A stretch of DNA of 64,000 nt from Candidatus Shapirobacteria bacterium (lineage in GTDB: Bacteria; Patescibacteriota; Microgenomatia; UBA12405), in assembly GCA_022837635.1 (NCBI GenBank), contig JALHFY010000001.1, forward strand, positions 23,562-87,561, given 5' to 3'. The position numbers and the translations under genes are program-made. The number at the start of each line of letters is the position of its first letter. Positions within the stretch are counted from its first letter, which is position 1. The notes under the pieces were generated by a model that saw only the letters and a program-made list of their open reading frames with translations, had not been told where the DNA came from and ran no database searches. Shown here piece after piece: positions 11,183-26,160 of this stretch.

Positions 11183-13671
11183 TGGACGAAATTAATCAAA
11201 GAGCCAAAAAAATAGACAAGGATTTAAGGGTACCACAATTGTCGGAAAATGCCCGATATATTGCGGAAACTAGATATGCGATTAAAAATGAGGTAGGACA
11301 GAGTACTGAAAAAGTAGAGGATATTTTTTGGCGGGTGGCTAGTAGTGTGGCTAGAGGCGATAAAAAGTCAGAAACGGAAATGGATAAAACAGCCAGAGCT
11401 TTTTATGAGGTTATGGCTGAGCAGAAGTTTTTGCCAAATACACCTTGTTTTGTGAATGCTGGTAGACAAAGGCAACAGTTGTCAGCTTGTTTTGTATTGC
11501 CAATTGATGACTCAATGGATTCAATTTTGGAGACATTGACTCATATGGCTCAGATTCATAAAAGTGGTGGAGGAACAGGTTTTTCTTTTACCAGATTAAG
11601 ACCGGCTGGAGATTATATTAAAAGTAGTGGGGGGACGACAGCTGGACCAGTGAGTTTTATGCAGGCTTACAATGATGTAACGGGACAGGTGAAACAGGGA
11701 GGAGTTAGACGAGGAGCTAATATGGGAATGTTATCGATTGATCACCCAGATGTATTGCGTTTTGCAGTGGTTAAATTGGATGAGTATTCGTTGACCAATT
11801 TTAATATTTCTTTGGCAGTAACTAATGCTTTTATGGAGAGAGTGGACAAAGACAAGGCTTTTGTGGAGGATGAATCTATTCCTGAGGAAATAGTGGAAAA
11901 GATTAGAATAGCTGAAGGCAATCGGGATGTGGATGCCAAATTGAGAGAAATGGAGGCGGAAATTGCCAAACTTTATGATTGGGCAGAAGCGACTAAGGAA
12001 GGAGAGGGTTACGAATTGATTAATCCTCGAGACGGAAGTGTGACTACGAAATTAAATGCTTATAAAGTGTTTAATTTGGTGACTAGATTGGCGTGGCAAT
12101 ATGGTGATCCGGGATTGGTATTTATTGACAGGATGAATGAGCCTAGTTCAAATCCAGTGCCTCATTTGGGTAGAATTGAAGCGACGAATCCTTGTGGGGA
12201 ACAACCATTATTGCCTTATGATGCTTGTAATCTAGGGAGTATAAATTTGTCTAGATTTGTAAAAGATGAAGATTTAGACTGGGATGAGTTGAGAAGGGTG
12301 GTTCATGAGGCGGTACATTTTTTGGATAATGTGGTGGAGATTAATGAGTTTCCGGTACCACAAATTAGAGAAATGGTTTCCAAGACTAGAAGAATTGGAT
12401 TAGGGATTATGGGTTTTGCGGATATGCTTTTCAAACTGAAAGTGACCTATGATTCGGAGGAAGCTCTGATTTGGGCAGAAAAAGTAATGAAATTTATTTC
12501 TGATGAGGCCAAGATGGCGACACAAGCTTTGGCAGTCGAAAGAGGTACTTTTCCGGAATGGGAAAGGAGTGTTTTTGGAAAAACAAATTATCGACCGCGA
12601 AATATGGCTCTGACGACAATTGCGCCGACAGGAACTATTTCCATGATTGCGGATGCCAGTTCAGGGATTGAACCCTTGTTTTCTTTGGGATATCAGAAAA
12701 ATACAGTTGAGGGTAAGACTTTATACATCATGAATCCGATTTTTGTGAAGACCTTGAAAGAAAGAGAAATTTATAGTGAGGAGTTGATGGATAAGGTTGT
12801 CAAAAATGGTGGTAAGCTAAGTGGAATTGAGGAAGTTCCAGAGGATTTGAAAAAGATTTTTAGGACAGCTTTAGAAATTAGTCCCGAGTGGCATATAAAA
12901 GTTCAGGCGGCTTTTCAGAAATATGTGGACAACGCGGTTAGTAAAACGATTAATTTTCCTAAAGAAGCAACAGTGGAGGAAGTGAGGACAGCGTATAGAC
13001 TGGCTTATTCTTTGGGGACTAAGGGAATAACTATATACAGAAGTGGTAGTCGAGAAAAGGAAGTAATACAGGAAGTGAAAGATCAGAAAACAGATACTAG
13101 AAATGAGAAACAAGAGATAAAAGCTGTTAAAAAAAGGACGCCGGATGCGGCTAGAGGAGTAAGATTACGCAAGGCTTGTGACGTGGGTAAAGTGTATACT
13201 TCGGTATTTTTTGAGGAAGGTGATGGACCGGTGGAGGTGTTTGTAAATTTGGGTAAATCGGGTGGTTATTTGGCTGGATCGGCGGAGATAACTGGCCGCT
13301 TGGCATCACTAGCTCTCAAGTATGGGGCTAATTTGGAAGAGGTGGCAGATGAGTTGGTAGGGATTTCTTGTGGACAAAGAGTCGGTTTTGGTAATGGAGC
13401 TATTTTGAGTATGTTTGATGCTGTTGGGAAAACTTTATTAGAGATATCAAAAGGAGAACAATTGGATTTATTTGAAGGAGAGAAGCATAAATTAGAGATG
13501 CCAGTGAAGGAAAAAAGTCAGATTGAAGAGGTGATGGCGGAGATTAAAAGTAAACAGACGAGTGAGGAAAGTGCTTTTAGCAGTTGTCCGGATTGTGGTA
13601 GTCCTTTGTATGCAGAGGAAGGATGTTTTAAGTGCAGTAACAGTTATTGTGGGTATAGCAAATGCAGTTAA
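11182..13671 (+). CDS. nrdJ: Class II (adenosylcobalamin-dependent) ribonucleotide reductase
   Basis: Motifs include NPCGEQPL and LSACFVLPIDDSMDSI. A C-terminal zinc ribbon is present. Confidence 0.85.
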   Translation: MDEINQRAKKIDKDLRVPQLSENARYIAETRYAIKNEVGQSTEKVEDIFWRVASSVARGDKKSETEMDKTARAFYEVMAEQKFLPNTPCFVNAGRQRQQLSACFVLPIDDSMDSILETLTHMAQIHKSGGGTGFSFTRLRPAGDYIKSSGGTTAGPVSFMQAYNDVTGQVKQGGVRRGANMGMLSIDHPDVLRFAVVKLDEYSLTNFNISLAVTNAFMERVDKDKAFVEDESIPEEIVEKIRIAEGNRDVDAKLREMEAEIAKLYDWAEATKEGEGYELINPRDGSVTTKLNAYKVFNLVTRLAWQYGDPGLVFIDRMNEPSSNPVPHLGRIEATNPCGEQPLLPYDACNLGSINLSRFVKDEDLDWDELRRVVHEAVHFLDNVVEINEFPVPQIREMVSKTRRIGLGIMGFADMLFKLKVTYDSEEALIWAEKVMKFISDEAKMATQALAVERGTFPEWERSVFGKTNYRPRNMALTTIAPTGTISMIADASSGIEPLFSLGYQKNTVEGKTLYIMNPIFVKTLKEREIYSEELMDKVVKNGGKLSGIEEVPEDLKKIFRTALEISPEWHIKVQAAFQKYVDNAVSKTINFPKEATVEEVRTAYRLAYSLGTKGITIYRSGSREKEVIQEVKDQKTDTRNEKQEIKAVKKRTPDAARGVRLRKACDVGKVYTSVFFEEGDGPVEVFVNLGKSGGYLAGSAEITGRLASLALKYGANLEEVADELVGISCGQRVGFGNGAILSMFDAVGKTLLEISKGEQLDLFEGEKHKLEMPVKEKSQIEEVMAEIKSKQTSEESAFSSCPDCGSPLYAEEGCFKCSNSYCGYSKCS

Positions 13672-13733: not shown

Positions 13734-14198
13734 ATGAATATGTCAATTGTGAGTAAGAAAGGAGATCGAGGGGAGACTTGGTATTTTGATAAAAGAGTGA
13801 GGAAGGATTCGGAGTTGATGGAAGCGGTAGGGAGTTTGGATGAATTGCAGGCGATTTGTGGGCTGGTTAAGTTAGAAAAAATACAAAAAGATTTATATGA
13901 AATAATGGCGAACTTAGACAAAGAAACTAGAAACAAGAAACTAGAAACCAGAATAAGGGAGATAGAGAAGGAGATAGAGATGATGGAGAAAAAGATAAAG
14001 GTGCCGAGGGAATTTGTGATTTTCAAAAAAGAGAAGGCGGTCAAGTTAAATTGGGTGAGAACGGTGGTGAGGAGAGCGGAGAGAATGATAATGAAACTAG
14101 AAACTAGAAACCAGAAACCAGATAAAGGTGTAATGATTTATTTAAATAGACTGTCCGATTTTATTTATTTAAGAGCTTTACAAGAAGAATTAAAATAA
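13734..14198 (+). CDS. PduO-type ATP:cob(I)alamin adenosyltransferase
   Basis: GDRGET...EAVGSLDEL at the N-terminus and VRTVVRRAERM...YLNRLSDFIYL at the C-terminus. The gene contains two CYAGAAA heptamer tracts. Confidence 0.65.
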   Translation: MNMSIVSKKGDRGETWYFDKRVRKDSELMEAVGSLDELQAICGLVKLEKIQKDLYEIMANLDKETRNKKLETRIREIEKEIEMMEKKIKVPREFVIFKKEKAVKLNWVRTVVRRAERMIMKLETRNQKPDKGVMIYLNRLSDFIYLRALQEELK

Positions 14199-14272
14199 AT
14201 TGGAATCAGGTGTAAGTCCTGAGCAGTGCCGCTACGGTAACAGCCCGAGCGAGAAAGCTTTCGAGCAAAAGT

Positions 14273-15118
14273 ATGAACAATAAAGAAAATTTTAAGCCTT
14301 ATTATGATATTAATCTACATAGTCATGAGGTGGTTGCCAGAGTGTTTCAAGAAGAAAGAAAAGGAGTGGGATTGGAATTGCGGATTGTTCATGCCGAAAA
14401 TTATGAAGAAAGTCGAATAAAGACTGATGATTGGGAATATAATCTCCATTCGGGAGCAGAAAAAAAAGCGACTCAAAATGTGTTTGAGTTATTGAGACAG
14501 GGTGCTCAAATGGTGATTTGGATTAGTCCACCCAGTGAAGTTTATGAAGAAGGGAGACTAAATGTAATGTTGAAAGGAGAGAAAGAGGGAGAATTGTTTT
14601 TCGATCCATACGGGTTACCATTGGATTTAAACAGAGAGGAGAGTTTGGAATTGGGACAGAGATTATGGAGAATGGAGGGTAAAAGTTTAGTTGCGCCATC
14701 AGATATAGAGATTTTACGGGAACAACCGATTGGTTTTTATCTGAGAGATAAAAATTGGTTGCAAAAGTGTCGGGAATTAATGCCAGAAATGGAATGGGCC
14801 TGGAAAACAATTGAGACGGGAAAGGTGGAGGAAAATATGAAAATAATTGCCGGTGAAGTGAAAGAAGCTAGACAAAAAGCTGGCGGAGATAATTATTTAT
14901 TTGAGGCGATAATGGCTAGAAATGGGTATTATTTGAACGTATCAGGAAGTCATGGAGGTTCGTGGTTGAGTCAGGAATTAGTCAGAAGTACACAGGGTAT
15001 AATCGCCTTTGATATAAATGGAAGAATAGAATATCGATTAGGAAGAACTGAGGGTTTACATTACTGCGAACGTTGTGGTTGTTGGTACAGTGGTGAAAAA
15101 TGTCCGGTCTGTAAATGA
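14273..15118 (+). CDS. Hypothetical protein with a C-terminal zinc ribbon (CERCGC...CPVC)
   Basis: No recognisable family. Confidence 0.4.
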   Translation: MNNKENFKPYYDINLHSHEVVARVFQEERKGVGLELRIVHAENYEESRIKTDDWEYNLHSGAEKKATQNVFELLRQGAQMVIWISPPSEVYEEGRLNVMLKGEKEGELFFDPYGLPLDLNREESLELGQRLWRMEGKSLVAPSDIEILREQPIGFYLRDKNWLQKCRELMPEMEWAWKTIETGKVEENMKIIAGEVKEARQKAGGDNYLFEAIMARNGYYLNVSGSHGGSWLSQELVRSTQGIIAFDINGRIEYRLGRTEGLHYCERCGCWYSGEKCPVCK

Positions 15119-18519: not shown

Positions 18520-18745
18520 AACGGAATAGGTTGGTGGGGTTTGATTATTCACAAGCAGGTTGGTATTTTGTCACCATTTGTAGTCAGGAAAAAGGAAATA
18601 TTTTTGGGGAGGTGGTGAAAGGGAAGGTGAAATAAATCAAAATATATTTTTGGATGAATATATAATCATGCCGGATCATGTGCATGGGATTATTGAAATC
18701 GTAGGGGCCGGGCAGTGCCCGGCCCGTACCAATTCGAAATTATAT
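18520..18745 (+). pseudogene. Degenerate fragment of an IS200/RAYT-type HUH transposase
   Basis: MPDHVHGIIEIVGAG, followed by the GC hairpin gggccgggcagtgcccggccc and ...ARTNSKL. The fragment is frameshifted and has no full ORF. Confidence 0.45.
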
Positions 18746-21399
18746 TATCGGGAATCCGAGGAATTTTTTAAAAGCCAAAAAAGGGTGATGATTAACAAGC
18801 CAAAGCCGAGGAATTGAAGCAGTTGAGGCCAGAATAAAATATAGATATCGGGACAGGGCGATGTCTTGTCTGTACATAGGGAATCAGGTAATTCCCAGGC
18901 ATTGGCCCAATTGTTCAAAAGATAATGGTTTTTAAGGAGATGTATTTTGCTGTTTTGTCGGTAAAAAGCCAACCAACCGGAAGAATAAGATTGAGGTAGG
19001 ATCAGAGTATGGGCTAGGGCATCAAGATTTATTTTGTAATAAAAAATACTGTTTTTAGAGTCGAGATAATGTCGATTAAGGGGAGCCGGATAATTTGGGG
19101 GACTGGAGAATAAGTTATAAACAGTGATGTTGTCAATATAGTTTTTGTTGGCTTGATGAAAACTGGTGTTATTGAAAATAAAATTAAGACCATAATCAAA
19201 AGTATCGGACTGTCGAGCGGGAATATAAAACCACGAAGTGGCGGGATTGGGAGAGATAGGGAGAAGGGTTTCAAAATACTTATTTAAAAGATTATCGGAA
19301 ATGGCGGAAATTTTGAGAGGCAATCCAGCTTCATGTCGAGAATTTATTTTGACCAGATAATTTTGGGAGAGAGAGGCTTTGGGGAAGTGAAAAGCAAAAA
19401 TGTTTTGCGTGGTATCTGAATGTTCCTGACTTTGAGTAACCAATACATTTTCGGTTAATAAAAGCGAGTTGGGATCAAAGTTTAATTCTGATTGCAGACG
19501 AGAAGTGAAATAATTATCAAAATTGGGGGAGGCTTGGTGGTCGACAAGATAGTCGCCCAATCTTTGATAATCATAATCGACTAGAGCAAAATCGAAAGCT
19601 GGGGCGGAAGGAAGTTGGGAGGTGGTAGCAATTTTAGTGGAAAAATTAGTTTGATAAACAGAAATATTTTGAGTTTGTTTGACCAGGATTAAATTAGGTA
19701 AACTGTCGAGTAAATTTTTGGTCGGTTGGGATAATTTACCGTAGATGTTTTCATCGGGAAAATAAATATTGTTGTCAAAAATAATGTATTCAATAAAATA
19801 TTTGGAAAAGACATTGTTTAACAGTAATGGATCTTGGCTTTGAATGGCATGACTTAATTCCCAATAATATTGTTCGTTTTTTAAATTCCAAGTATCAAAG
19901 GCACGGTCTAAAATTGGTTGAGGGATGGCATACCAAATGAAGCCAGAACCGGATAGATTCCATTTATAGTTGGTCCAACCCCAAAAAGAACCTTGGGGGA
20001 GATTGGCGATACGAGCGGTCGGGGCGACTTGAGATTGAAAAAAGTTAAAGATTTCCATGTATTCTTGGGGAATTTTTTGTCGAACATCAGGTGAGAAATA
20101 GTTACCACTAAAACTAGGTTGAGAGAAGAAATAAAGACAAAGAAGAGACAGAAAAATTGGCAACTTGGCGACAAAAGAAGAGTATTTTAATTGAGTTGCG
20201 ATTTGATAAAGGAGTTGTAAGCCTAAAGCAAAGAGGTAACTAAAAAGGAAGGCGGCGGGTACCAGAAATTTGGTCCAAGGTGAACGAAAAATTTGGTTGA
20301 TAATGGGCAGTGAACGGAGAGCTTGATTTAAAAGATTGAAAGGAAATTGGTTGGAAAGTAAAGTTAGGGCGGAGAGGAGTAATAAAAAAATAAGGGAGAT
20401 TTTAATATACTTGGGGGTATGTCGATGAGTAAAGAGAGAAATAAAACCTAAGATAACCACAAGAGATAAAAGATAGCCACAGAGGAGAAAATAATGATTG
20501 GAAAAATGTTGTTGCCACGCGGCTAAAAGAGCGGTATTGTTACTGGGAAAATCGTAATAATAGCCACGCAAGAGCAAAAAATCGCTTAGATTGCCCCGGG
20601 CCTGATTGCGAGCAAAGGTTTCATTGTTACTCATGAAATTGCCAATGCCGGCAGTGGGGTTTTGAAGATTGGTTTTGAGAAAATAAAGTTGAGATAAGAG
20701 CCAAAAAGAATTAATTAAGAAGATAATTAGATAAATAGATAAGTAGTTGGGAAGATGAGAAATTTTTGGACGGGTTATAAAATGGGCGAGTAAAATTAAC
20801 GAGATACACAGTAGATAGACAATAAAAATAGTTTGGACGTGGAAAGAGGGGATGGCTAGGATATTTAAGATAATCAGTTTTTTGAGGTGTTTTTTATTTT
20901 CCAAAAAATCCCAAAAAGTAAAAATCAGCCAGGGAAAAAAGCCCCAAAAGGTGGAAAATGATTCCAAAGGGACACGGAAATATTGAACAGAGCCGAAATT
21001 CAGAAGATAAAAAAGAGCAGCGGCGAGAGGGATTAATTTTTGGGACAGATGTTTTTTGAGACCAAAATAAATACCAAAGGTACCTAAAAAGAGCATGGCA
21101 AAATGCCAAAAATAACGGATTAATCTGACAGGTAGAATGAGGGTTAGGGGTAAGATGAGCAGTTGACGGATAAGATCAGTAGCGTGGGCCATACCACCGA
21201 CTAAACCTAGACCTTGATATTCTTGCCAGACGGCTAAAAAAGATCTTTTTAGATTTAAGCTGAGATTGAGTTCCGGCATGAGATTGTCCCAACCGATCAA
21301 AAAGGTACCGGGAGTATAGTTTTTAAGGCACAAAAGAGAGAGGACAGCGACTAAAATAATTTCGCTAAGATGTCGTTTACACCAGGCAAAGATAGGCAT
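18745..21399 (-). CDS. Large polytopic membrane protein, probably a GT-C-type glycosyltransferase
   Basis: An 884-aa protein with many transmembrane segments, adjacent to a GT2 gene. Confidence 0.4.
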   Translation of the reverse strand: MPIFAWCKRHLSEIILVAVLSLLCLKNYTPGTFLIGWDNLMPELNLSLNLKRSFLAVWQEYQGLGLVGGMAHATDLIRQLLILPLTLILPVRLIRYFWHFAMLFLGTFGIYFGLKKHLSQKLIPLAAALFYLLNFGSVQYFRVPLESFSTFWGFFPWLIFTFWDFLENKKHLKKLIILNILAIPSFHVQTIFIVYLLCISLILLAHFITRPKISHLPNYLSIYLIIFLINSFWLLSQLYFLKTNLQNPTAGIGNFMSNNETFARNQARGNLSDFLLLRGYYYDFPSNNTALLAAWQQHFSNHYFLLCGYLLSLVVILGFISLFTHRHTPKYIKISLIFLLLLSALTLLSNQFPFNLLNQALRSLPIINQIFRSPWTKFLVPAAFLFSYLFALGLQLLYQIATQLKYSSFVAKLPIFLSLLCLYFFSQPSFSGNYFSPDVRQKIPQEYMEIFNFFQSQVAPTARIANLPQGSFWGWTNYKWNLSGSGFIWYAIPQPILDRAFDTWNLKNEQYYWELSHAIQSQDPLLLNNVFSKYFIEYIIFDNNIYFPDENIYGKLSQPTKNLLDSLPNLILVKQTQNISVYQTNFSTKIATTSQLPSAPAFDFALVDYDYQRLGDYLVDHQASPNFDNYFTSRLQSELNFDPNSLLLTENVLVTQSQEHSDTTQNIFAFHFPKASLSQNYLVKINSRHEAGLPLKISAISDNLLNKYFETLLPISPNPATSWFYIPARQSDTFDYGLNFIFNNTSFHQANKNYIDNITVYNLFSSPPNYPAPLNRHYLDSKNSIFYYKINLDALAHTLILPQSYSSGWLAFYRQNSKIHLLKNHYLLNNWANAWELPDSLCTDKTSPCPDIYILFWPQLLQFLGFGLLIITLFWLLKNSSDSR

Positions 21400-21406
21400 T
21401 AACTAA

Positions 21407-22285
21407 TTATACTGATTTGGAGAAAGAAACGACAGGGAAGTTTGATTTAGGTTGAGTGACACCACGAACTAAATACCACAAATGATAAATAGTATTGGAA
21501 GGTAGAATTGAGATGGCAAAAATTTGAGCCAAGTTAATCAGAATAGAAAGAAAGGTAGGTCGATATCCATTTTTAAGAGCTAAAAGACGACTTTGTAGAG
21601 TGAGAGCAAAGGTTTTTTTAGGATTAAGACGAGAGAGGGAACCCTCGACTTGACGATAAAAATAAAGGTTGTCGGGTAAATTGGTGATATCACCATATTT
21701 AATCAGTTGAAAATAGAGATTAACTTCTTCAGCGGAACGTTTAGAGGGTTCATACCAATTGAATTTTTTAGGCAACAGAGAACGATTGACCATCATGTAA
21801 CCTTGCTGAGTTGGTACGGCCCAAAACATCATATTTTTGACTTTTTGGGGATTAGTGGGAAAAGATTTGGTGCCGATAACTTGATTTTGTTCATTGACAA
21901 GAGTGCATTGACCACCGACCAAAACAGTTTTTTTATGTTTTTTAAGATAGGCCAGTTGTTTTTCGAGACGGTTGGAAACAGAGATGTCGTCGGCATCCAT
22001 GCGGGCCAAGTATTTGCAACGAGCATGGGCAATAGCGATATTACTGGTCAGAGAAACGCCTAAATTAATTTTGTTTTTATAGGCACGGATACGTTTATCC
22101 AGGCGAGCGTATTTTTTGATGATTTTCCAAGAGTCATCATCAGAGGCGTCATCAATGATGATAAATTCAAAGCGGGTGAAGGTTTGAGAGAGGATGGATT
22201 CAATGGCAGCGGGCAGATAGGTGGCGGCATTCCAGACCGGCATATAGACGGAAATTAGAGGTTTTTTAAATTTAAAGTTGGTCAT
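21407..22285 (-). CDS. Family 2 glycosyltransferase
   Basis: ISVYMPVWNAATYL...IIIDDASDD...DADD motifs. Confidence 0.8.
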   Translation of the reverse strand: MTNFKFKKPLISVYMPVWNAATYLPAAIESILSQTFTRFEFIIIDDASDDDSWKIIKKYARLDKRIRAYKNKINLGVSLTSNIAIAHARCKYLARMDADDISVSNRLEKQLAYLKKHKKTVLVGGQCTLVNEQNQVIGTKSFPTNPQKVKNMMFWAVPTQQGYMMVNRSLLPKKFNWYEPSKRSAEEVNLYFQLIKYGDITNLPDNLYFYRQVEGSLSRLNPKKTFALTLQSRLLALKNGYRPTFLSILINLAQIFAISILPSNTIYHLWYLVRGVTQPKSNFPVVSFSKSV

Positions 22286-22437
22286 GGTAGTTTCGCCTTG
22301 TAACTAAGGACTCATCAGCTCCGCAGTGGCGGAGGACTACCAACAATCTCTTTCTTTCTTTCCTTTCTTTTTCCCCATGCTCCCGCGGGAACTTTGCCTA
22401 TTGGCATTGTTCCCACGAGGGGTTAAGGGGGAGGGGG

Positions 22438-23412
22438 TTATGGCATGATTACAATCTGCACACCTACCAAAATTTCATCAGGGAGATATTCTTTGAGTGA
22501 GTCAGTTACAGCTAGCCCCAGACGGCTGGTTATATCAAAATTGCCATTGAGGATTTCATCGACTACTCGATTGCTAATATCTTTTGTGAGGTGTGGTTGG
22601 TCAAACCATAAGACAAGTTCTGCGTTTCGTAGCTCGATGTCTTGGATACCAGACTTGAGTTGAAATAATGCACCTTCATTAAATTCGAGTCCATTAATAC
22701 GGATACCACCGCCAAAAATGACAGGGATGGTTTCACATGTATTAAGACGAACTTTGATCCAGGTATTTTCAACAGTCCTTAATTCAGTTTCTGTTAATGA
22801 TTCATTCCAAGCTTTGCCTGGTACGATGGTACGCCGCGAGGTCCAAACAACTCGGTTGCCGATATCGTGGACTGATTCGGTTTGGATATACTCTCCGGCA
22901 TCTGTCCAATTGACACCATCGATGGATATTTGAATGGTGTCACAAGCGACAACTTTGTCGTTAGGTTCTTCGGATGTTTCCGACTCTGTCGTTTCGACTG
23001 TCGGAGTAGGGGTGACGACCTCAACTTCTTCCGTTTCTGGTGTGGGAGTGACCTCAACTACAGGTTCTTCGGATGTTTCCGACTCTGTCGTTTCGACTGT
23101 TGGAGTGGGGGTGGGGGGAGTAACGTTGGTAGCTTTCGGTCGAAATACGATTAGAGCTATAATACCCGCCGCCAGTGCTATACCTACAAGCAACGGCCAC
23201 CACGGTCGACGTTGCGGTTCCTCCTGGGTGGTATTGGGGGTAGGGTCGACTTCGATGAAGTCGCCCTCTTCGATATTATTTTCATGGTCCATTATATTTT
23301 CCTTTCTTATCGGTGCCCAACCAGCGGCGACCAGTTTGCGTATTGTTGCTTTTTTAAGCTGACGCTCACGGTAACCTCGGCGGGCATTGATCTTGGTTTG
23401 TCTGGGGTCCAT
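22438..23412 (-). CDS. Membrane-anchored protein with a duplicated Thr/Pro/Glu-rich linker, lying in a GC-richer island. The likely start is the ATG at 23412 behind an AGGAGG Shine-Dalgarno sequence
   Basis: A transmembrane segment WWPLLVGIALAAGIIALIVF. The block TPTPTVETTESETSEEP occurs twice, encoded by 51-bp direct repeats at about 22964 and 23063. Confidence 0.5.
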   Translation of the reverse strand: MDPRQTKINARRGYRERQLKKATIRKLVAAGWAPIRKENIMDHENNIEEGDFIEVDPTPNTTQEEPQRRPWWPLLVGIALAAGIIALIVFRPKATNVTPPTPTPTVETTESETSEEPVVEVTPTPETEEVEVVTPTPTVETTESETSEEPNDKVVACDTIQISIDGVNWTDAGEYIQTESVHDIGNRVVWTSRRTIVPGKAWNESLTETELRTVENTWIKVRLNTCETIPVIFGGGIRINGLEFNEGALFQLKSGIQDIELRNAELVLWFDQPHLTKDISNRVVDEILNGNFDITSRLGLAVTDSLKEYLPDEILVGVQIVIMP

Positions 23413-23831
23413 TAACAGCCTCCTTTCTGGACGGGAGACCTCCCAGAATAAAAACATGTTGAATGCGAACTTCAGCCACCTGTGTGACAAGATCCGTCGT
23501 TGGACCTCTTATTGAACCCTCTCCTTTCAATAGAGTTCACTTAAGCCCGGAGTAGGGCGGGACTAAGTGAACTCTACTAAAGGAGTTTTTTTAGGAAAGA
23601 TTTTAGAAAGAGATTGTTAAAGAACTGTGTTTTTGGCTAATCCAAACGCGGTGTCTGGGTAGCCGCTGACACTGACTGGTGATAAACACCAGGGGAGAAA
23701 CGGAGTAAGTATGACGAGGAGCCACCTTACCCCGAGAGTCTCTCCTCTGATGTTTATTCAGAGGGAAGTTAAACTTCTAGTTGTTAAAAGATTGAAAGTT
23801 GACTATCACAATCAACAATCAATTGTAATGA
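23413..23831 (-). ncRNA. Long structured 5' leader / candidate cis-regulatory RNA of the CDS at 22438..23412
   Basis: About 410 nt with no ORF. A perfect 13-bp stem tagagttcactta / taagtgaactcta with a 20-nt GC loop lies at 23531-23576. Several additional hairpins are present, and a promoter sits upstream on the minus strand. Confidence 0.35.
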
Positions 23832-23860
23832 AGTGTATCAAGAAAAGACGATAATGTCAA
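23832..23860 (-). promoter_or_regulatory. Sigma70-like promoter on the minus strand: TTGACA, 17 nt, TACACT
   Basis: This is the reverse complement of agtgtatcaagaaaagacgataatgtcaa. Confidence 0.4.
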
Positions 23861-23912
23861 GTTATAGGATATGAAAAATTGGTATAAAATAAATTGAAAT
23901 TTTGAAGGTACA

Positions 23913-24281
23913 ATGTTACATATGACAACAATAAGTAAGATTATTAACAAATATAAAGAGTTCTATTTTCAACAATGGCGAGGTCATGAAAAAGAATGTC
24001 CGGTGTTTCAAGAAAAGGTATATGTAACTCGTTTGGGGTGGAATCATATTGTTTTTAACAAAAGACACAGATCAAAGGATGTGGTGATGAGATTGAAAGC
24101 GTTGATGTTAGCTAAAGAATTGTTGGAAAAAGCAACTATATATCAAGACAGACGAATTAAGAACGGCAATTATTTTTATGCGTTTGATGGTATTATTCGG
24201 AATAAAAAAATTAGAGTGATAGTGACTTCAAAGGGAAAGAAAGGTAAGAAGATCTTTTTGTCAGTGATTTATCGAGCATAA
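23913..24281 (+). CDS. Hypothetical protein
   Basis: A 122-aa ORF. Confidence 0.4.
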   Translation: MLHMTTISKIINKYKEFYFQQWRGHEKECPVFQEKVYVTRLGWNHIVFNKRHRSKDVVMRLKALMLAKELLEKATIYQDRRIKNGNYFYAFDGIIRNKKIRVIVTSKGKKGKKIFLSVIYRA

Positions 24282-24422
24282 AAAAAAGATTTTGTGTCTC
24301 CACTTTGGCCTTGATGAGGGTTGAGTGAGTCAAGGGTAAACCTTTCACAAAATCTTGAGTGTATTGTACCTGTTAATGTATGGTTTTGTCAATTGAGTAC
24401 TGGAATAGTCCCGGAAAAGAGA

Positions 24423-25350: not shown

Positions 25351-25938
25351 TTAGATTTCAATCCAGCTAAAGTAAGTAGTTTTGTCAGGTTGGGTTTCTT
25401 TATAGCCAGTTTTGACTATCTGAGAGGGATTTAATTGTGTTTCATAAAAGAAACCGCGGTATTCGCTATTGAGGCCGGGATAACTAAGAGATGTACGTTT
25501 TGTTTGTGTGGTGCTAGTTGGTTGAAGAAATAAATTGTCGTTTCTAATACCAAGTTCTTCAGCCAGAGCTCTAAGAGCAGCTTTTTCGGGTTGTTCCCCA
25601 ATGTGTATTTTTTCGCTAACAGCACCGGTGGCATAATGTCTGGTTCTAATTCTTTCTTGGAGAGTGTTTTCATTGAAGACCTGTTTTTCTTCGATGAGTT
25701 GGTGCTTTTTGCCATCAAAAAATCCCAAAACATTGATGTCAACAAAATCAACTCTTCTGGTGAGCTCATTATTTTGAGATGTGAGATAACTATCGTGATT
25801 TTTTAACTCTTCAAAGAGGTGTTGAGGGGTTTTTGCGTAACCTTTTCCCCATTCGTTAATAGATATGTTAAATTTTTTAAGGATAGAGATTAGTGAAGGG
25901 AGGTCGGCGGGGACAGTGATTAACTGAGCTTCAATCAT
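25351..25938 (-). CDS. Hypothetical protein with a Nudix-box-like motif. The start is the ATG at 25938, not the longer ORF in the track
   Basis: GEQPEKAALRALAEELGI approximates the GX5EX7REUXEEXGU Nudix box. The upstream ORF extension is a translation of tRNA repeats. Confidence 0.3.
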   Translation of the reverse strand: MIEAQLITVPADLPSLISILKKFNISINEWGKGYAKTPQHLFEELKNHDSYLTSQNNELTRRVDFVDINVLGFFDGKKHQLIEEKQVFNENTLQERIRTRHYATGAVSEKIHIGEQPEKAALRALAEELGIRNDNLFLQPTSTTQTKRTSLSYPGLNSEYRGFFYETQLNPSQIVKTGYKETQPDKTTYFSWIEI

Positions 25939-26085
25939 GTGGACCCAAGGGGACTCGAACCCCTGACCTGTCCGATGTCCATCGGACCGCGTTGACAAAT
26001 GGATAACATACTGTGAACCCAAGGGGACTCGAACCCCTGACCTGTCCGATGTCCATCGGACCGCGTTGACAAATGGATAACATAC
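25938..26085 (-). repeat. Two tandem 74-bp units, each made of the 3' 31 nt of tRNA-Ala fused to a 24-nt palindromic core
   Basis: Unit starts are at 25938 and 26012. The core tgacctgtccgatgtccatcggac lies at 25964-25987 and 26038-26061. Confidence 0.85.
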
Positions 26086-26087
26086 TG

Positions 26088-26160
26088 TGGACCCAAGGGG
26101 ACTCGAACCCCTGACCTTCCCCATGCCATGGGGACGCGCTACCAACTACGCTATGGGCCC
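26088..26160 (-). tRNA. tRNA-Ala (anticodon GGC)
   Basis: Cloverleaf GGGCCCA..TTGGCAT loop..GGTTCGAGTCC..TGGGTCCA. Confidence 0.85.

Follow-up and report, generated by a model that had tools for sequence, protein, structure and literature searches.

The 64-kb window analyzed here, the whole stretch of 64,000 nucleotides (nt) taken from contig JALHFY010000001.1 of a Candidatus Shapirobacteria bacterium, carries on its minus strand a gene for a 324-amino-acid (aa) protein, hereafter the cargo gene. This gene is preceded by a structured leader and followed by a stable hairpin, a polypurine trailer, a type III hammerhead ribozyme motif, and a GT2 glycosyltransferase gene. Related loci with the same layout were recovered from other contigs and are designated by L-numbers (L001, etc.). 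The best explanation of the region is one transcription unit, with predicted co-transcription of its parts, in which a bacterium of the candidate phyla radiation (CPR) places an RNA "bracket" around an exchangeable surface-protein gene. The features are given below in the presumed direction of transcription.

23860..23832, minus strand: promoter TTGACA-17-TACACT with a TG-extended -10, recognized by its motif, the TATCCTATAACTTGACATTAT block of which is kept in related loci
23791..23826, minus strand: hairpin 1, from RNAalifold on 12 leaders (columns 10-48), with compensatory changes
23780..23790, minus strand: boxA-like element 1, CUUUUAACAAC, in which UUUAACAA is nearly invariant in the 12 aligned leaders
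23764-23777, minus strand: hairpin 2, short, just upstream of hairpin 3
23676..23763, minus strand: hairpin 3, a long stem of ~30 pairs with a covarying lower stem and the apical loop GGUGGCUCCUC
23635..23664, minus strand: hairpin 4 with a conserved CACCGCG, from fold and sequence conservation
23613..23629, minus strand: boxA-like element 2, CACAGUUCUUUAACAAU, whose 3′ part overlaps the helix leader strand
23593..23618, minus strand: helix leader strand, AACAAUCUCUUUCU (23605-23618) and AUCUUUCCU (23593-23601), from complementarity to the trailer
23413..23592, minus strand: proximal leader, which travels with the cassette
22441-23412, minus strand: cargo gene, 324 aa, start 23412 behind AGGAGG
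22373..22422, minus strand: stable hairpin CCCC..GUGGGAAC..GUUCCCGC..GGGG, from the fold, just past the stop codon
22342..22372, minus strand: polypurine trailer, AGAAAGAGAUUGUU (22342-22355) and AGGAAAGA (22357-22364), the helix trailer strand
22285..22342, minus strand: type III hammerhead, between the cargo gene and the GT2 start codon
21407..22285, minus strand: GT2 glycosyltransferase gene, EpsE/TuaG-like, directly downstream of the hammerhead
22440..23606, no strand given: swapped cassette (cargo gene plus proximal leader), from blastn against L015

The related loci were reached from both the protein and the RNA. A word-indexed search with the cargo protein gave four homologue clusters at 45-52% identity, a full hidden Markov model search gave 73 cluster representatives among 1.84 billion, and the contigs L001-L007, obtained from cargo homologues, carried the same leader pieces and the same 3′ module. 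The motif of leader hairpin 3 (GGAGAGA..GGUGGCUCCUC..UCUCC; window 23694-23745) was scanned against GTDB genomes and JGI metagenomes, yielding around 20 genuine loci, which are hosted by Ca. Shapirobacteria, Ca. Woesebacteria, and one unclassified Patescibacteria genome. The same locus is also present on two contigs whose bins have different names, one a Gammaproteobacteria metagenome-assembled genome (MAG) and the other a Methanoperedens MAG. The motif matches L014, L016, L029, and L031 were rejected as chance, and the single match in a scan of IMG/VR viral contigs was a chance GC-rich hairpin. The loci share the following order of elements, of which those other than the cargo gene and the variable proximal leader are called the scaffold here.

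Elements 1-4, all loci: promoter (TATCCTATAACTTGACATTAT..., then the -10), hairpin 1, boxA-1, hairpin 2
Elements 5-8, all loci: long hairpin 3 with an invariant apical loop, hairpin 4, boxA-2, polypyrimidine leader strand
Elements 9-10, all loci: variable proximal leader, Shine-Dalgarno sequence with a gene for a secreted or anchored protein
Elements 11-13, all loci: stable hairpin without a U tail, polypurine trailer strand, type III hammerhead
Element 14: GT2 start codon within 0-5 nt or, in L002, L008, and L009, a terminator-like hairpin

With permissive settings, Rfam gave a single meaningful match in 22200-24000, Hammerhead_3 (RF00008), with 32 bits and E = 1.7e-4; at the gathering threshold, Rfam returned nothing in the 22286-23900 region when the whole window was scanned. 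The motif reads UGGUAGUC / CUCCGC-CACU-GCGGAG / CUGAUGA / G-U-CCUU-AGUUAC-AAGG-C / GAA / ACUACCA and resolves into stem III (UGGUAGU/ACUACCA), a GUC triplet, stem I (CUCCGC/GCGGAG), the core CUGAUGA, stem II (a G-C pair plus CCUU/AAGG), and GAA. Stems I and II are closed by short loops (4 nt and 4-6 nt), stem III is open, and every invariant core nucleotide is present (C3 U4 G5 A6 U7 G8 A9, G12 A13 A14, A15.1-U16.1, and an H17 that is not G). The nine distinct sequences of the family all retain this core, the swapped 15.1-16.1 pair of L002 and L010 (see below) being the exception, and their H17 was C, U, or A and never G. The canonical fold had -18.0 kcal/mol compared with a minimum free energy of -19.8 kcal/mol, a gap of 1.8. 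Cleavage is predicted between 22335 and 22334, that is, after C22335, and stem III ends in A22285, with which the start codon of GT2 begins. A previous sequence-only reading of the region had missed the hammerhead (22285-22342), as well as the 14-nt long-range complement and the boxA-like elements described below.

Since all homologues lay below the Rfam cut-off, a covariance model for this lineage, R1, was built from six homologues with the window copy left out. R1 found the window copy with E = 1.4e-5 in 171 kb, together with the copies of L015, L004, and L020, and gave E-values of 1e-18 to 1e-23 for other family members. Two weak matches of R1 (window 12482-12520 and L019 1680-1716; E = 0.025), both inside coding sequence, were attributed to chance. 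The hammerheads were aligned by hand on their structure and with the model, MAFFT having misaligned the window copy. In the nine distinct sequences, 97.2% of the cells were standard pairs, compared with 20-49% when the 3′ partners were slid by 1-3 columns. Compensatory double changes were present in 10 of 16 pairs (five of six in stem I and five of six in stem III), and no shuffle attained the observed covariation score. The 58-nt hammerhead is identical in L004, whose adjacent protein is only 49% identical. We have little doubt that the motif is a genuine hammerhead, and self-cleavage is predicted from its sequence.

The sole stem that never covaries is stem II (UCC/GGA), which lies ~10 nt upstream of the GT2 AUG, and its AAGG probably doubles as the GT2 Shine-Dalgarno sequence. 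A start codon follows stem III by 0-5 nt in the window, L004, L015, L020, L011-L013, L017, L019, and L010. The copy of L019 (1422-1494, minus strand; 63.5 bits with R1) carries a 19-nt insertion in loop II, UUUAUCCGCCUAUGGUGGA, which can form a small hairpin. In three lineages, a terminator-like hairpin lies within ~10 nt 3′ of the hammerhead (L008 2792-2822, minus strand; L009 5038-5057, plus strand; L002 2291-2318, plus strand), and thus no downstream cistron is served there. With this layout, self-cleavage would strip the terminator hairpin from the finished mRNA. That a terminator and not a gene comes next in these lineages indicates that the common denominator is the formation of a 3′ end and not the release of a cistron. 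A second ribozyme in the leader, as needed for excision or circularization, was not found by Rfam or R1.

The trailer that abuts the hammerhead is complementary to the leader. A repeat search found a 14-nt perfect inverted repeat (22342-22355 / 23605-23618) with arms 1249 nt apart; the trailer arm belongs to the CT-rich tract that the sequence-only reading had quoted from the plus strand, here read on the other strand. The helix of the window is bipartite, with 21 bp and -26.7 kcal/mol, and none of 300 shuffles paired as well. Across loci, it consists of 13-14 bp plus 7-8 bp, 15-23 bp in total. The duplexes were computed by RNAduplex with 45-nt and 34-nt segments; longer segments gave spurious distal pairs. 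In 13 of 13 loci, the trailer strand ended 0 nt from hammerhead stem III (45-nt segments), and in the same proportion the leader strand started at positions 5-9 of boxA-2. This fixed register relative to two RNA motifs argues for a helix that acts as RNA.

The helix strands differ between lineages. In L009, the leader strand is unrelated (CCUAGUUUCUU; ACCUAGUUUCU-UUACCC) and paired with its own trailer at -32.4 kcal/mol, compared with -7 to -20 kcal/mol for foreign trailers. The likewise unrelated leader strand of L008 (CUUGCAAAACUA-UUUCUC) gave -23.4 kcal/mol with its own trailer, compared with -9 to -19 kcal/mol for foreign ones. L017 has its own compensated variant of the helix, and between the window and L015 there is a compensatory change from C-G to U-A. 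Taken together, we have good confidence that a long-range leader-trailer helix is under selection. Because it encloses a 324-aa coding sequence and not rRNA, it would act like an rRNA leader-trailer helix without being a member of that class; rRNA was not found in the window or in any retrieved locus.

Between the stop codon and the trailer lies the stable 3′ hairpin, which includes gttcccgcgggaac and a G-rich run; these runs and the CT-rich tract, on which the sequence-only reading had remarked, are all present. Every locus has a hairpin here; those of L009, L011, L017, and L008 are of different sequence. Lacking a U tail, the hairpin does not qualify as an intrinsic terminator, and terminator prediction found none between the cargo gene and GT2 in the window.

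At the other end of the unit, the TTGACA-17-TACACT promoter was confirmed at 23860..23832, with the TG extension in addition, and is conserved in ~15 related loci; the predicted transcript start is probably near 23825. The claim of a structured leader of ~410 nt held up well. A 441-nt leader RNA had a free energy of -156.6 kcal/mol (z = -9.0), with none of 100 shuffles as good, and the nucleotide identity of the distal leader was 80-84%, compared with 67-75% for the adjacent coding genes. Hairpin 1 stands right after the promoter, in the place of boxB in rRNA operons. In hairpin 3, G-U pairs are kept in 11-12 of 12 sequences, which indicates an RNA made from the minus strand. The loop GGUGGCUCCUC of this hairpin is invariant in all loci, partly through the design of the search. 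It complements GGGAGC(C), which 8 of 13 trailers have directly past the 3′ hairpin, as well as the Shine-Dalgarno-like AGGAG, and may make another long-range contact or bind a protein.

BoxA-2 is conserved in all leaders, and its exact 11-mer occurs once in the 64-kb window. Compared with the boxA and spacer RNA of E. coli rrn operons, CACugcucuuuaacaauuua (PMC2724277, Table 1), the corresponding CACAGUUCUUUAACAAUCUC is identical at 16 of 20 bases. The order of the elements in the promoter-proximal leader, from hairpin to boxA to helix leader strand, is that of the rrn layout. In the L002 leader, terminator-like hairpins lie 3′ of boxA, which is only suggestive of antitermination. The distal leader (23593-23830) is best read, from its sequence and layout, as an antitermination leader of the rRNA-operon type and not as a ligand sensor. 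In L008, a small open reading frame (ORF) of ~75-93 aa with a hydrophobic N-terminus lies between hairpin 3 and boxA-2 (oriented unit positions ~95-320), so the leader can host an extra gene upstream of the helix.

The proximal leader behaves differently from locus to locus. It is kept only among the loci with an MDPRK-type cassette (L020, L013, L007, L023, and L032) and is replaced by unrelated sequence in L015, L011, and L012. The perfect 13-bp inverted repeat noted previously is indeed present and forms the core of a larger hairpin with 24-nt arms (23526-23549 / 23558-23581), which is accompanied by two small covarying hairpins and by the Shine-Dalgarno sequence AGGAGG at 23419-23424. The consensus fold of five sequences (RNAalifold) paired GGGUUCA (within 23508-23521) with UGGACCC over the AUG, without covariation; a competing partner of GGGUUCA is UGAACUC in the 3′ arm of the 13-bp hairpin. 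A rival helix, UCUGGG/CCCAGA, shuts the ribosome-binding site in the model and shows one compensatory change, in L032. A translational switch in this cassette-linked part of the leader is possible, on thin support.

The cargo protein matched no Pfam or NCBIfam family. Its upstream start at 23412, behind AGGAGG, is backed by the conserved MDPRKTNARRGY in homologues. The protein is laid out as a basic N-terminal tail, a transmembrane anchor, a linker rich in Thr, Pro, and Glu, and a C-terminal domain of ~170 aa that is predicted to be a beta-sandwich. In the linker, a 17-aa unit, TPTPTVETTESETSEEP, is present twice in identical form. The repeats had been described as two exact copies with 51-bp DNA repeats 99 bp apart; the spacing of 99 nt and the identity of the protein copies stood, and the DNA copies (22963-23014 / 23062-23113) proved to be 52 nt long and 96% identical. 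The Thr/Pro-rich linker, beside genes for GalU-like, GT2, and large polytopic membrane proteins, suggests that the cargo is a glycosylated surface protein. Across the recovered loci, the neighborhood is constant, with tRNAs and the GalU-like gene upstream and the GT2 gene and a gene for an 884-aa membrane protein downstream, and each genome has one copy of the scaffold.

A nearly identical strain, Ca. Shapirobacteria UBA1420 (L015), has flanks 96-99% identical to those of the window. In blastn, 23607-24419 was 98.9% and 18644-22439 was 96.4% identical, and across 22440-23606 there was no detectable DNA similarity. The breakpoints of this cassette fall at the stop codon and at the helix leader strand. 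The two cargo proteins share 34% identity over 119 aa only. Eight loci have divergent cargo of one family, with a signal-anchor or lipobox, a Pro/Thr/Ala-rich linker, and a conserved C-terminal domain, and L009, L010, and L017 carry on the same scaffold lipoprotein cargo without detectable similarity to the main family. Since the distal leader, too, is better conserved than the coding genes beside it, what is conserved as a unit is the scaffold, around cargo that can be exchanged. As the scaffold is conserved and the cargo is not, the flanks would act as homology arms for the exchange of cargo alleles between strains. The earlier suggestion of a horizontally acquired surface-protein cassette thus applies to 22440-23606 and not to the locus, whose position is conserved across Shapirobacteria and relatives and, like the scaffold, is passed on vertically. 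The Logan assemblies L005 and L006 both end exactly 37 nt past the stop codon, inside the conserved 3′ hairpin (compare L004 position 1153). This is most simply an assembly-graph break caused by co-occurring strains that share the flank and differ in the cassette.

The base composition agrees with a distinct cassette in kind, and the deviation is modest in size. The GC content of 22286-23900 is 0.453, compared with a window mean of 0.388 (standard deviation 0.024 for blocks of equal size, z = 2.7), and all GC-richest blocks of the window overlap this region; the GC-richer island of the sequence-only reading is therefore real and the extreme of the window, but only modestly so. The inner cassette (22440-23606) has a GC content of 0.47 and a skew of ~0.05. 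In the cargo gene, the plus-strand GC skew is ~0.05, compared with 0.27-0.35 in neighboring genes on the same strand. In every locus, the cargo gene has a higher GC content (0.43-0.60) than the leader (0.36-0.42).

In the mechanism that we propose, a strong sigma-70-type promoter would open the ~410-nt leader, whose distal half comprises hairpins and two boxA elements resembling those of rRNA operons. The boxA would recruit NusB/S10 and other Nus factors, which would let RNA polymerase cross the long, untranslated, hairpin-rich leader without terminating; a further effect of boxA may be that the leader strand stays near the RNA exit channel. After the gene and the stable 3′ hairpin, the polypurine trailer would pair with the polypyrimidine leader strand that begins inside boxA, and the resulting helix of ~21 bp would close a 1.25-kb coding loop, as around 16S and 23S rRNA. 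The hammerhead, beginning at the next nucleotide, would then fold, with stem III able to stack on the helix, and would cut after C22335. The upstream product would be an mRNA with a 2′,3′-cyclic-phosphate 3′ end located seven nt beyond a ~21-bp duplex with its own leader. This duplex and the further stable hairpin should shield the mRNA from 3′ exonucleases, giving high and stable expression of the surface protein. The downstream product would start with a 5′-OH, carry the GT2 genes (or, in three lineages, a terminator only), and probably have a different fate. Where GT2 follows, cleavage would yield a separate 5′-OH mRNA with its ribosome-binding site within the ribozyme, likely a second function.

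The motifs, the covariation, the fixed geometry, and the cassette swap are computed results, from which we infer self-cleavage in the cell, Nus binding, and mRNA stabilization. We give the integrated mechanism of antitermination, helix, and hammerhead somewhat better than an even chance. A broader proposal is more tentative, and we would sooner expect it to fail than to hold: CPR bacteria may have co-opted the folding machinery of the rRNA operon (leader tethering by boxA/Nus and the leader-trailer helix) for an mRNA, with the hammerhead replacing terminator or RNase III processing. The outcome would be a closed-loop mRNA whose cyclic-phosphate 3′ end pairs with its own leader, and the scaffold would be a cargo-independent platform for high expression that takes up different surface-protein genes by recombination. 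In a more extreme version, the cyclic-phosphate end beside the leader would be a substrate for RtcB-type ligation.

Several observations weigh against the integrated mechanism. The window hammerhead scores 32 bits compared with a gathering score of 48.5, and the family ranges from 28 to 46 bits with a best of 46.4; the gathering score of RF00008 is an annotation threshold and not a chemical property of the class. In L002 and L010, the 15.1-16.1 pair is swapped to U15.1-A16.1 (triplet GAA) with the core otherwise intact, and the L008 copy has a U-U at 10.1-11.1; the hammerheads of these three loci may cleave poorly. The copy at the contig end of L001 is probably swapped too, with the triplet UAU. 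The swapped variants (L002 2231-2279; L010 oriented ~1530-1640) were unseen by Rfam and weak with R1 (E = 0.14), and they may represent natural cleavage at a non-NUH triplet or dead copies. A paper on the "NHH rule", cited in PMC3088659, is said to suggest that hammerhead variants at 16.1 can be cleaved. Turning to the helix, most loci share AAUCUCUUUCUU / AAUCUCUUUCU, where cognate and non-cognate pairings are of equal quality, so that its independent covariation comes from few lineages. It is also nearly pure Watson-Crick, with 0-1 G-U pairs, and thus neither the strand nor selection on RNA versus DNA can be read from the helix alone. A helix of ~21 bp could equally be a site for RNase III, in which case the share of the hammerhead would be unclear. 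Finally, boxA was called from sequence and position alone, and the cleavage, the transcript start, and the co-transcription are all predictions.

The strongest rival explanation makes the hammerhead an intercistronic insulator, whose main role would be to keep the strongly expressed surface-protein mRNA apart from the glycosyltransferase genes. It would provide the downstream mRNA with a 5′-OH end and free or control the ribosome-binding site embedded in the ribozyme, and the helix would only aid ribozyme folding. The start codon 0-5 nt past stem III in ten loci including the window, the absence of a promoter or terminator between the cargo gene and GT2 in the window, and a stem II (UCC/GGA) that never covaries, as expected of a Shine-Dalgarno sequence on double duty, all speak for it, and there is precedent in polycistronic transcripts of bacteria and phages that have hammerheads beside genes (PMC3088659). 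However, no cistron is released in L002, L008, and L009, where a terminator-like hairpin follows the ribozyme, and the conserved helix to a distant leader, always abutting stem III, is left unexplained. As the whole account of the locus we consider the insulator unlikely; as a second function it is compatible with the proposed mechanism. The helix itself could alternatively be a substrate for rRNA-style processing by RNase III, which would remove leader and trailer together and leave the hammerhead as an accessory or back-up. A bipartite helix of 15-23 bp beside boxA does resemble that of pre-16S rRNA, in which the RNase III site overlaps boxC (PMC10250234). Cleavage by RNase III is not predictable from sequence. 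This explanation would not account for the strict retention, in all lineages, of a complete hammerhead with 0 nt between it and the helix, and we regard it as improbable.

The sequence-only reading had suggested regulation of another kind, with the leader as a riboswitch, an RNA thermometer, or a small RNA (sRNA), which would sense a signal and thereby gate translation of the surface protein. The very strong structure (z = -9) is in line with this, and the alternative pairings of GGGUUCA together with the UCUGGG/CCCAGA helix and its one compensatory change (L032) would permit a switch. Yet no Rfam riboswitch, thermometer, or sRNA family matched at E<=10 in 22200-24000, where only chance microRNA-type matches and the hammerhead appeared; the covariance-model scan returned no terminator or attenuator either, and the ribozyme that it did return fell short of the gathering score. 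BoxA and hairpins account for the conserved distal leader, no conserved unpaired aptamer-like pocket was seen, the proximal leader is not conserved across cassettes (unrelated in L015, L011, and L012), the pairing at the start codon lacks covariation, and there is no terminator to define an sRNA. We give little credence to this family of explanations. Least probable of all, and by our estimate very improbable, is an element that works as DNA, with a mobile or phase-variable cassette that recombines or inverts at the inverted repeats, and with RNA pairing incidental. The breakpoint at 23606/23607 does coincide with the leader repeat, a nearly pure Watson-Crick helix pairs as well in DNA as in RNA, and the GC content and skew of the cassette are unlike those of its neighbors. 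Nevertheless, the other breakpoint (22439/22440) is 85 nt off the trailer repeat, itself a part of the conserved flank; the orientation is the same in all ~20 recovered loci; no recombinase gene is adjacent; IMG/VR viral contigs held no real match to the leader motif; and the repeat keeps a constant position with respect to two RNA motifs, boxA and hammerhead stem III.

If the proposed mechanism of antitermination, helix, and hammerhead is true, the leader-trailer helix and Nus-type antitermination, thought to be devices of rRNA, would be usable for mRNA, and a ribozyme would be able to act as an element that forms 3′ ends. The hammerhead has here a fixed place, a partner helix, a boxA signal, and a readout in the abundance of the surface-protein mRNA, which makes its function directly testable. 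The locus would also mark the surface protein that varies most, and is probably expressed most highly, in Shapirobacteria and relatives, a candidate host-contact molecule of these episymbiotic uncultivated bacteria, and the conserved RNA flanks would explain the exchange of alleles between strains. For annotation, the Rfam hammerhead model at its gathering cut-off misses this lineage.

Other features of the window were recorded alongside. A cobalamin riboswitch aptamer at 14156-14276 (plus strand) scored 35.9 bits compared with an Rfam gathering score of 31.5 and ends at the start of ORF 14273-15118. A candidate sRNA at ~24270-24392 (minus strand) has a promoter-like TTGACA-18-TACAAT (24392..24363), a length of ~85 nt, and an 11-bp closing stem followed by U8; it is antisense to the 3′ end of ORF 23913-24281, its fold z is only -1.2, and it had no Rfam match. 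Two partial tRNA-Ala-like copies stand in tandem at 25939-25991 and 26013-26065, adjoining an intact tRNA-Ala at 26087-26160, and are 81-91% identical to part of the tRNA-Ala genes in related loci. Partial tRNA copies can be leftovers of integration at a tRNA gene. The N-terminal third of ORF 25351-26145 (264 aa) is probably non-coding, since it runs through these copies. The plus-strand GC skew is very high (+0.2 to +0.55) through most of the window regardless of gene orientation, and it is near 0 only at the cassette (22.0-23.5 kb) and at 48.5-54 kb, where the AT skew is negative as well. The latter block may be a rearranged or foreign segment.

The components of the locus can be compared with several known systems. 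Bacterial and phage hammerheads flank genes in polycistronic transcripts, and their precise functions have been called unclear (Perreault et al., 2011, PMC3088659). With the type III hammerheads of RF00008, the present motif shares the catalytic core, the three-helix junction, the open stem III, and an intergenic place on one transcript, so that cleavage would divide a polycistronic RNA. In contrast to the known bacterial and phage examples, it is a single-copy chromosomal element of a conserved CPR cell-envelope locus, neither in a prophage nor near an integrase; a long-range helix with the 5′ leader invariably adjoins it, it is linked to boxA, and in three lineages a terminator follows it. 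A full-text search of open-access texts found no literature linking hammerheads to CPR/Patescibacteria and none on an mRNA enclosed by a boxA-linked leader-trailer helix that is joined to a hammerhead.

The glmS ribozyme lies in the 5′ untranslated region, needs glucosamine 6-phosphate, and destabilizes the mRNA of its gene. It resembles the present case as a self-cleaving RNA in a bacterial mRNA, with 5′-OH and 2′,3′-cyclic-phosphate products expected to differ in stability, whereas the ribozyme here comes after the gene, shows no evident ligand, and would, in the proposed mechanism, stabilize the upstream product. Non-rRNA mRNAs can also carry boxA, as in the autoregulation of suhB by Nus factors. 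A boxA in a protein-coding leader is thus shared, but the suhB-type cases are not known to have a leader-trailer helix or ribozyme.

The closest likeness is with the leader of rrn operons, where boxB, boxA, and boxC with the leader-trailer helix are arranged in this order around 16S and 23S rRNA (Warner et al., 2023, PMC10250234). In these operons, assembly of the Nus antitermination complex starts at boxA, which is believed to retain the leader by the RNA exit channel until the trailer emerges, and in the E. coli leader-trailer helix >17 bp is critical (PMC10250234). Both systems have a strong promoter, a hairpin, a boxA, and a leader strand that pairs with a trailer >1 kb downstream, and the ~21 bp of the present helix exceed the critical length in E. 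coli. The differences are that a translated mRNA is enclosed here, that a self-cleaving ribozyme rather than RNase III follows the trailer, and that boxA is present in two copies. Accordingly placed among these systems, the ribozyme is a new lineage of a known class, and it is the composite scaffold that is new.

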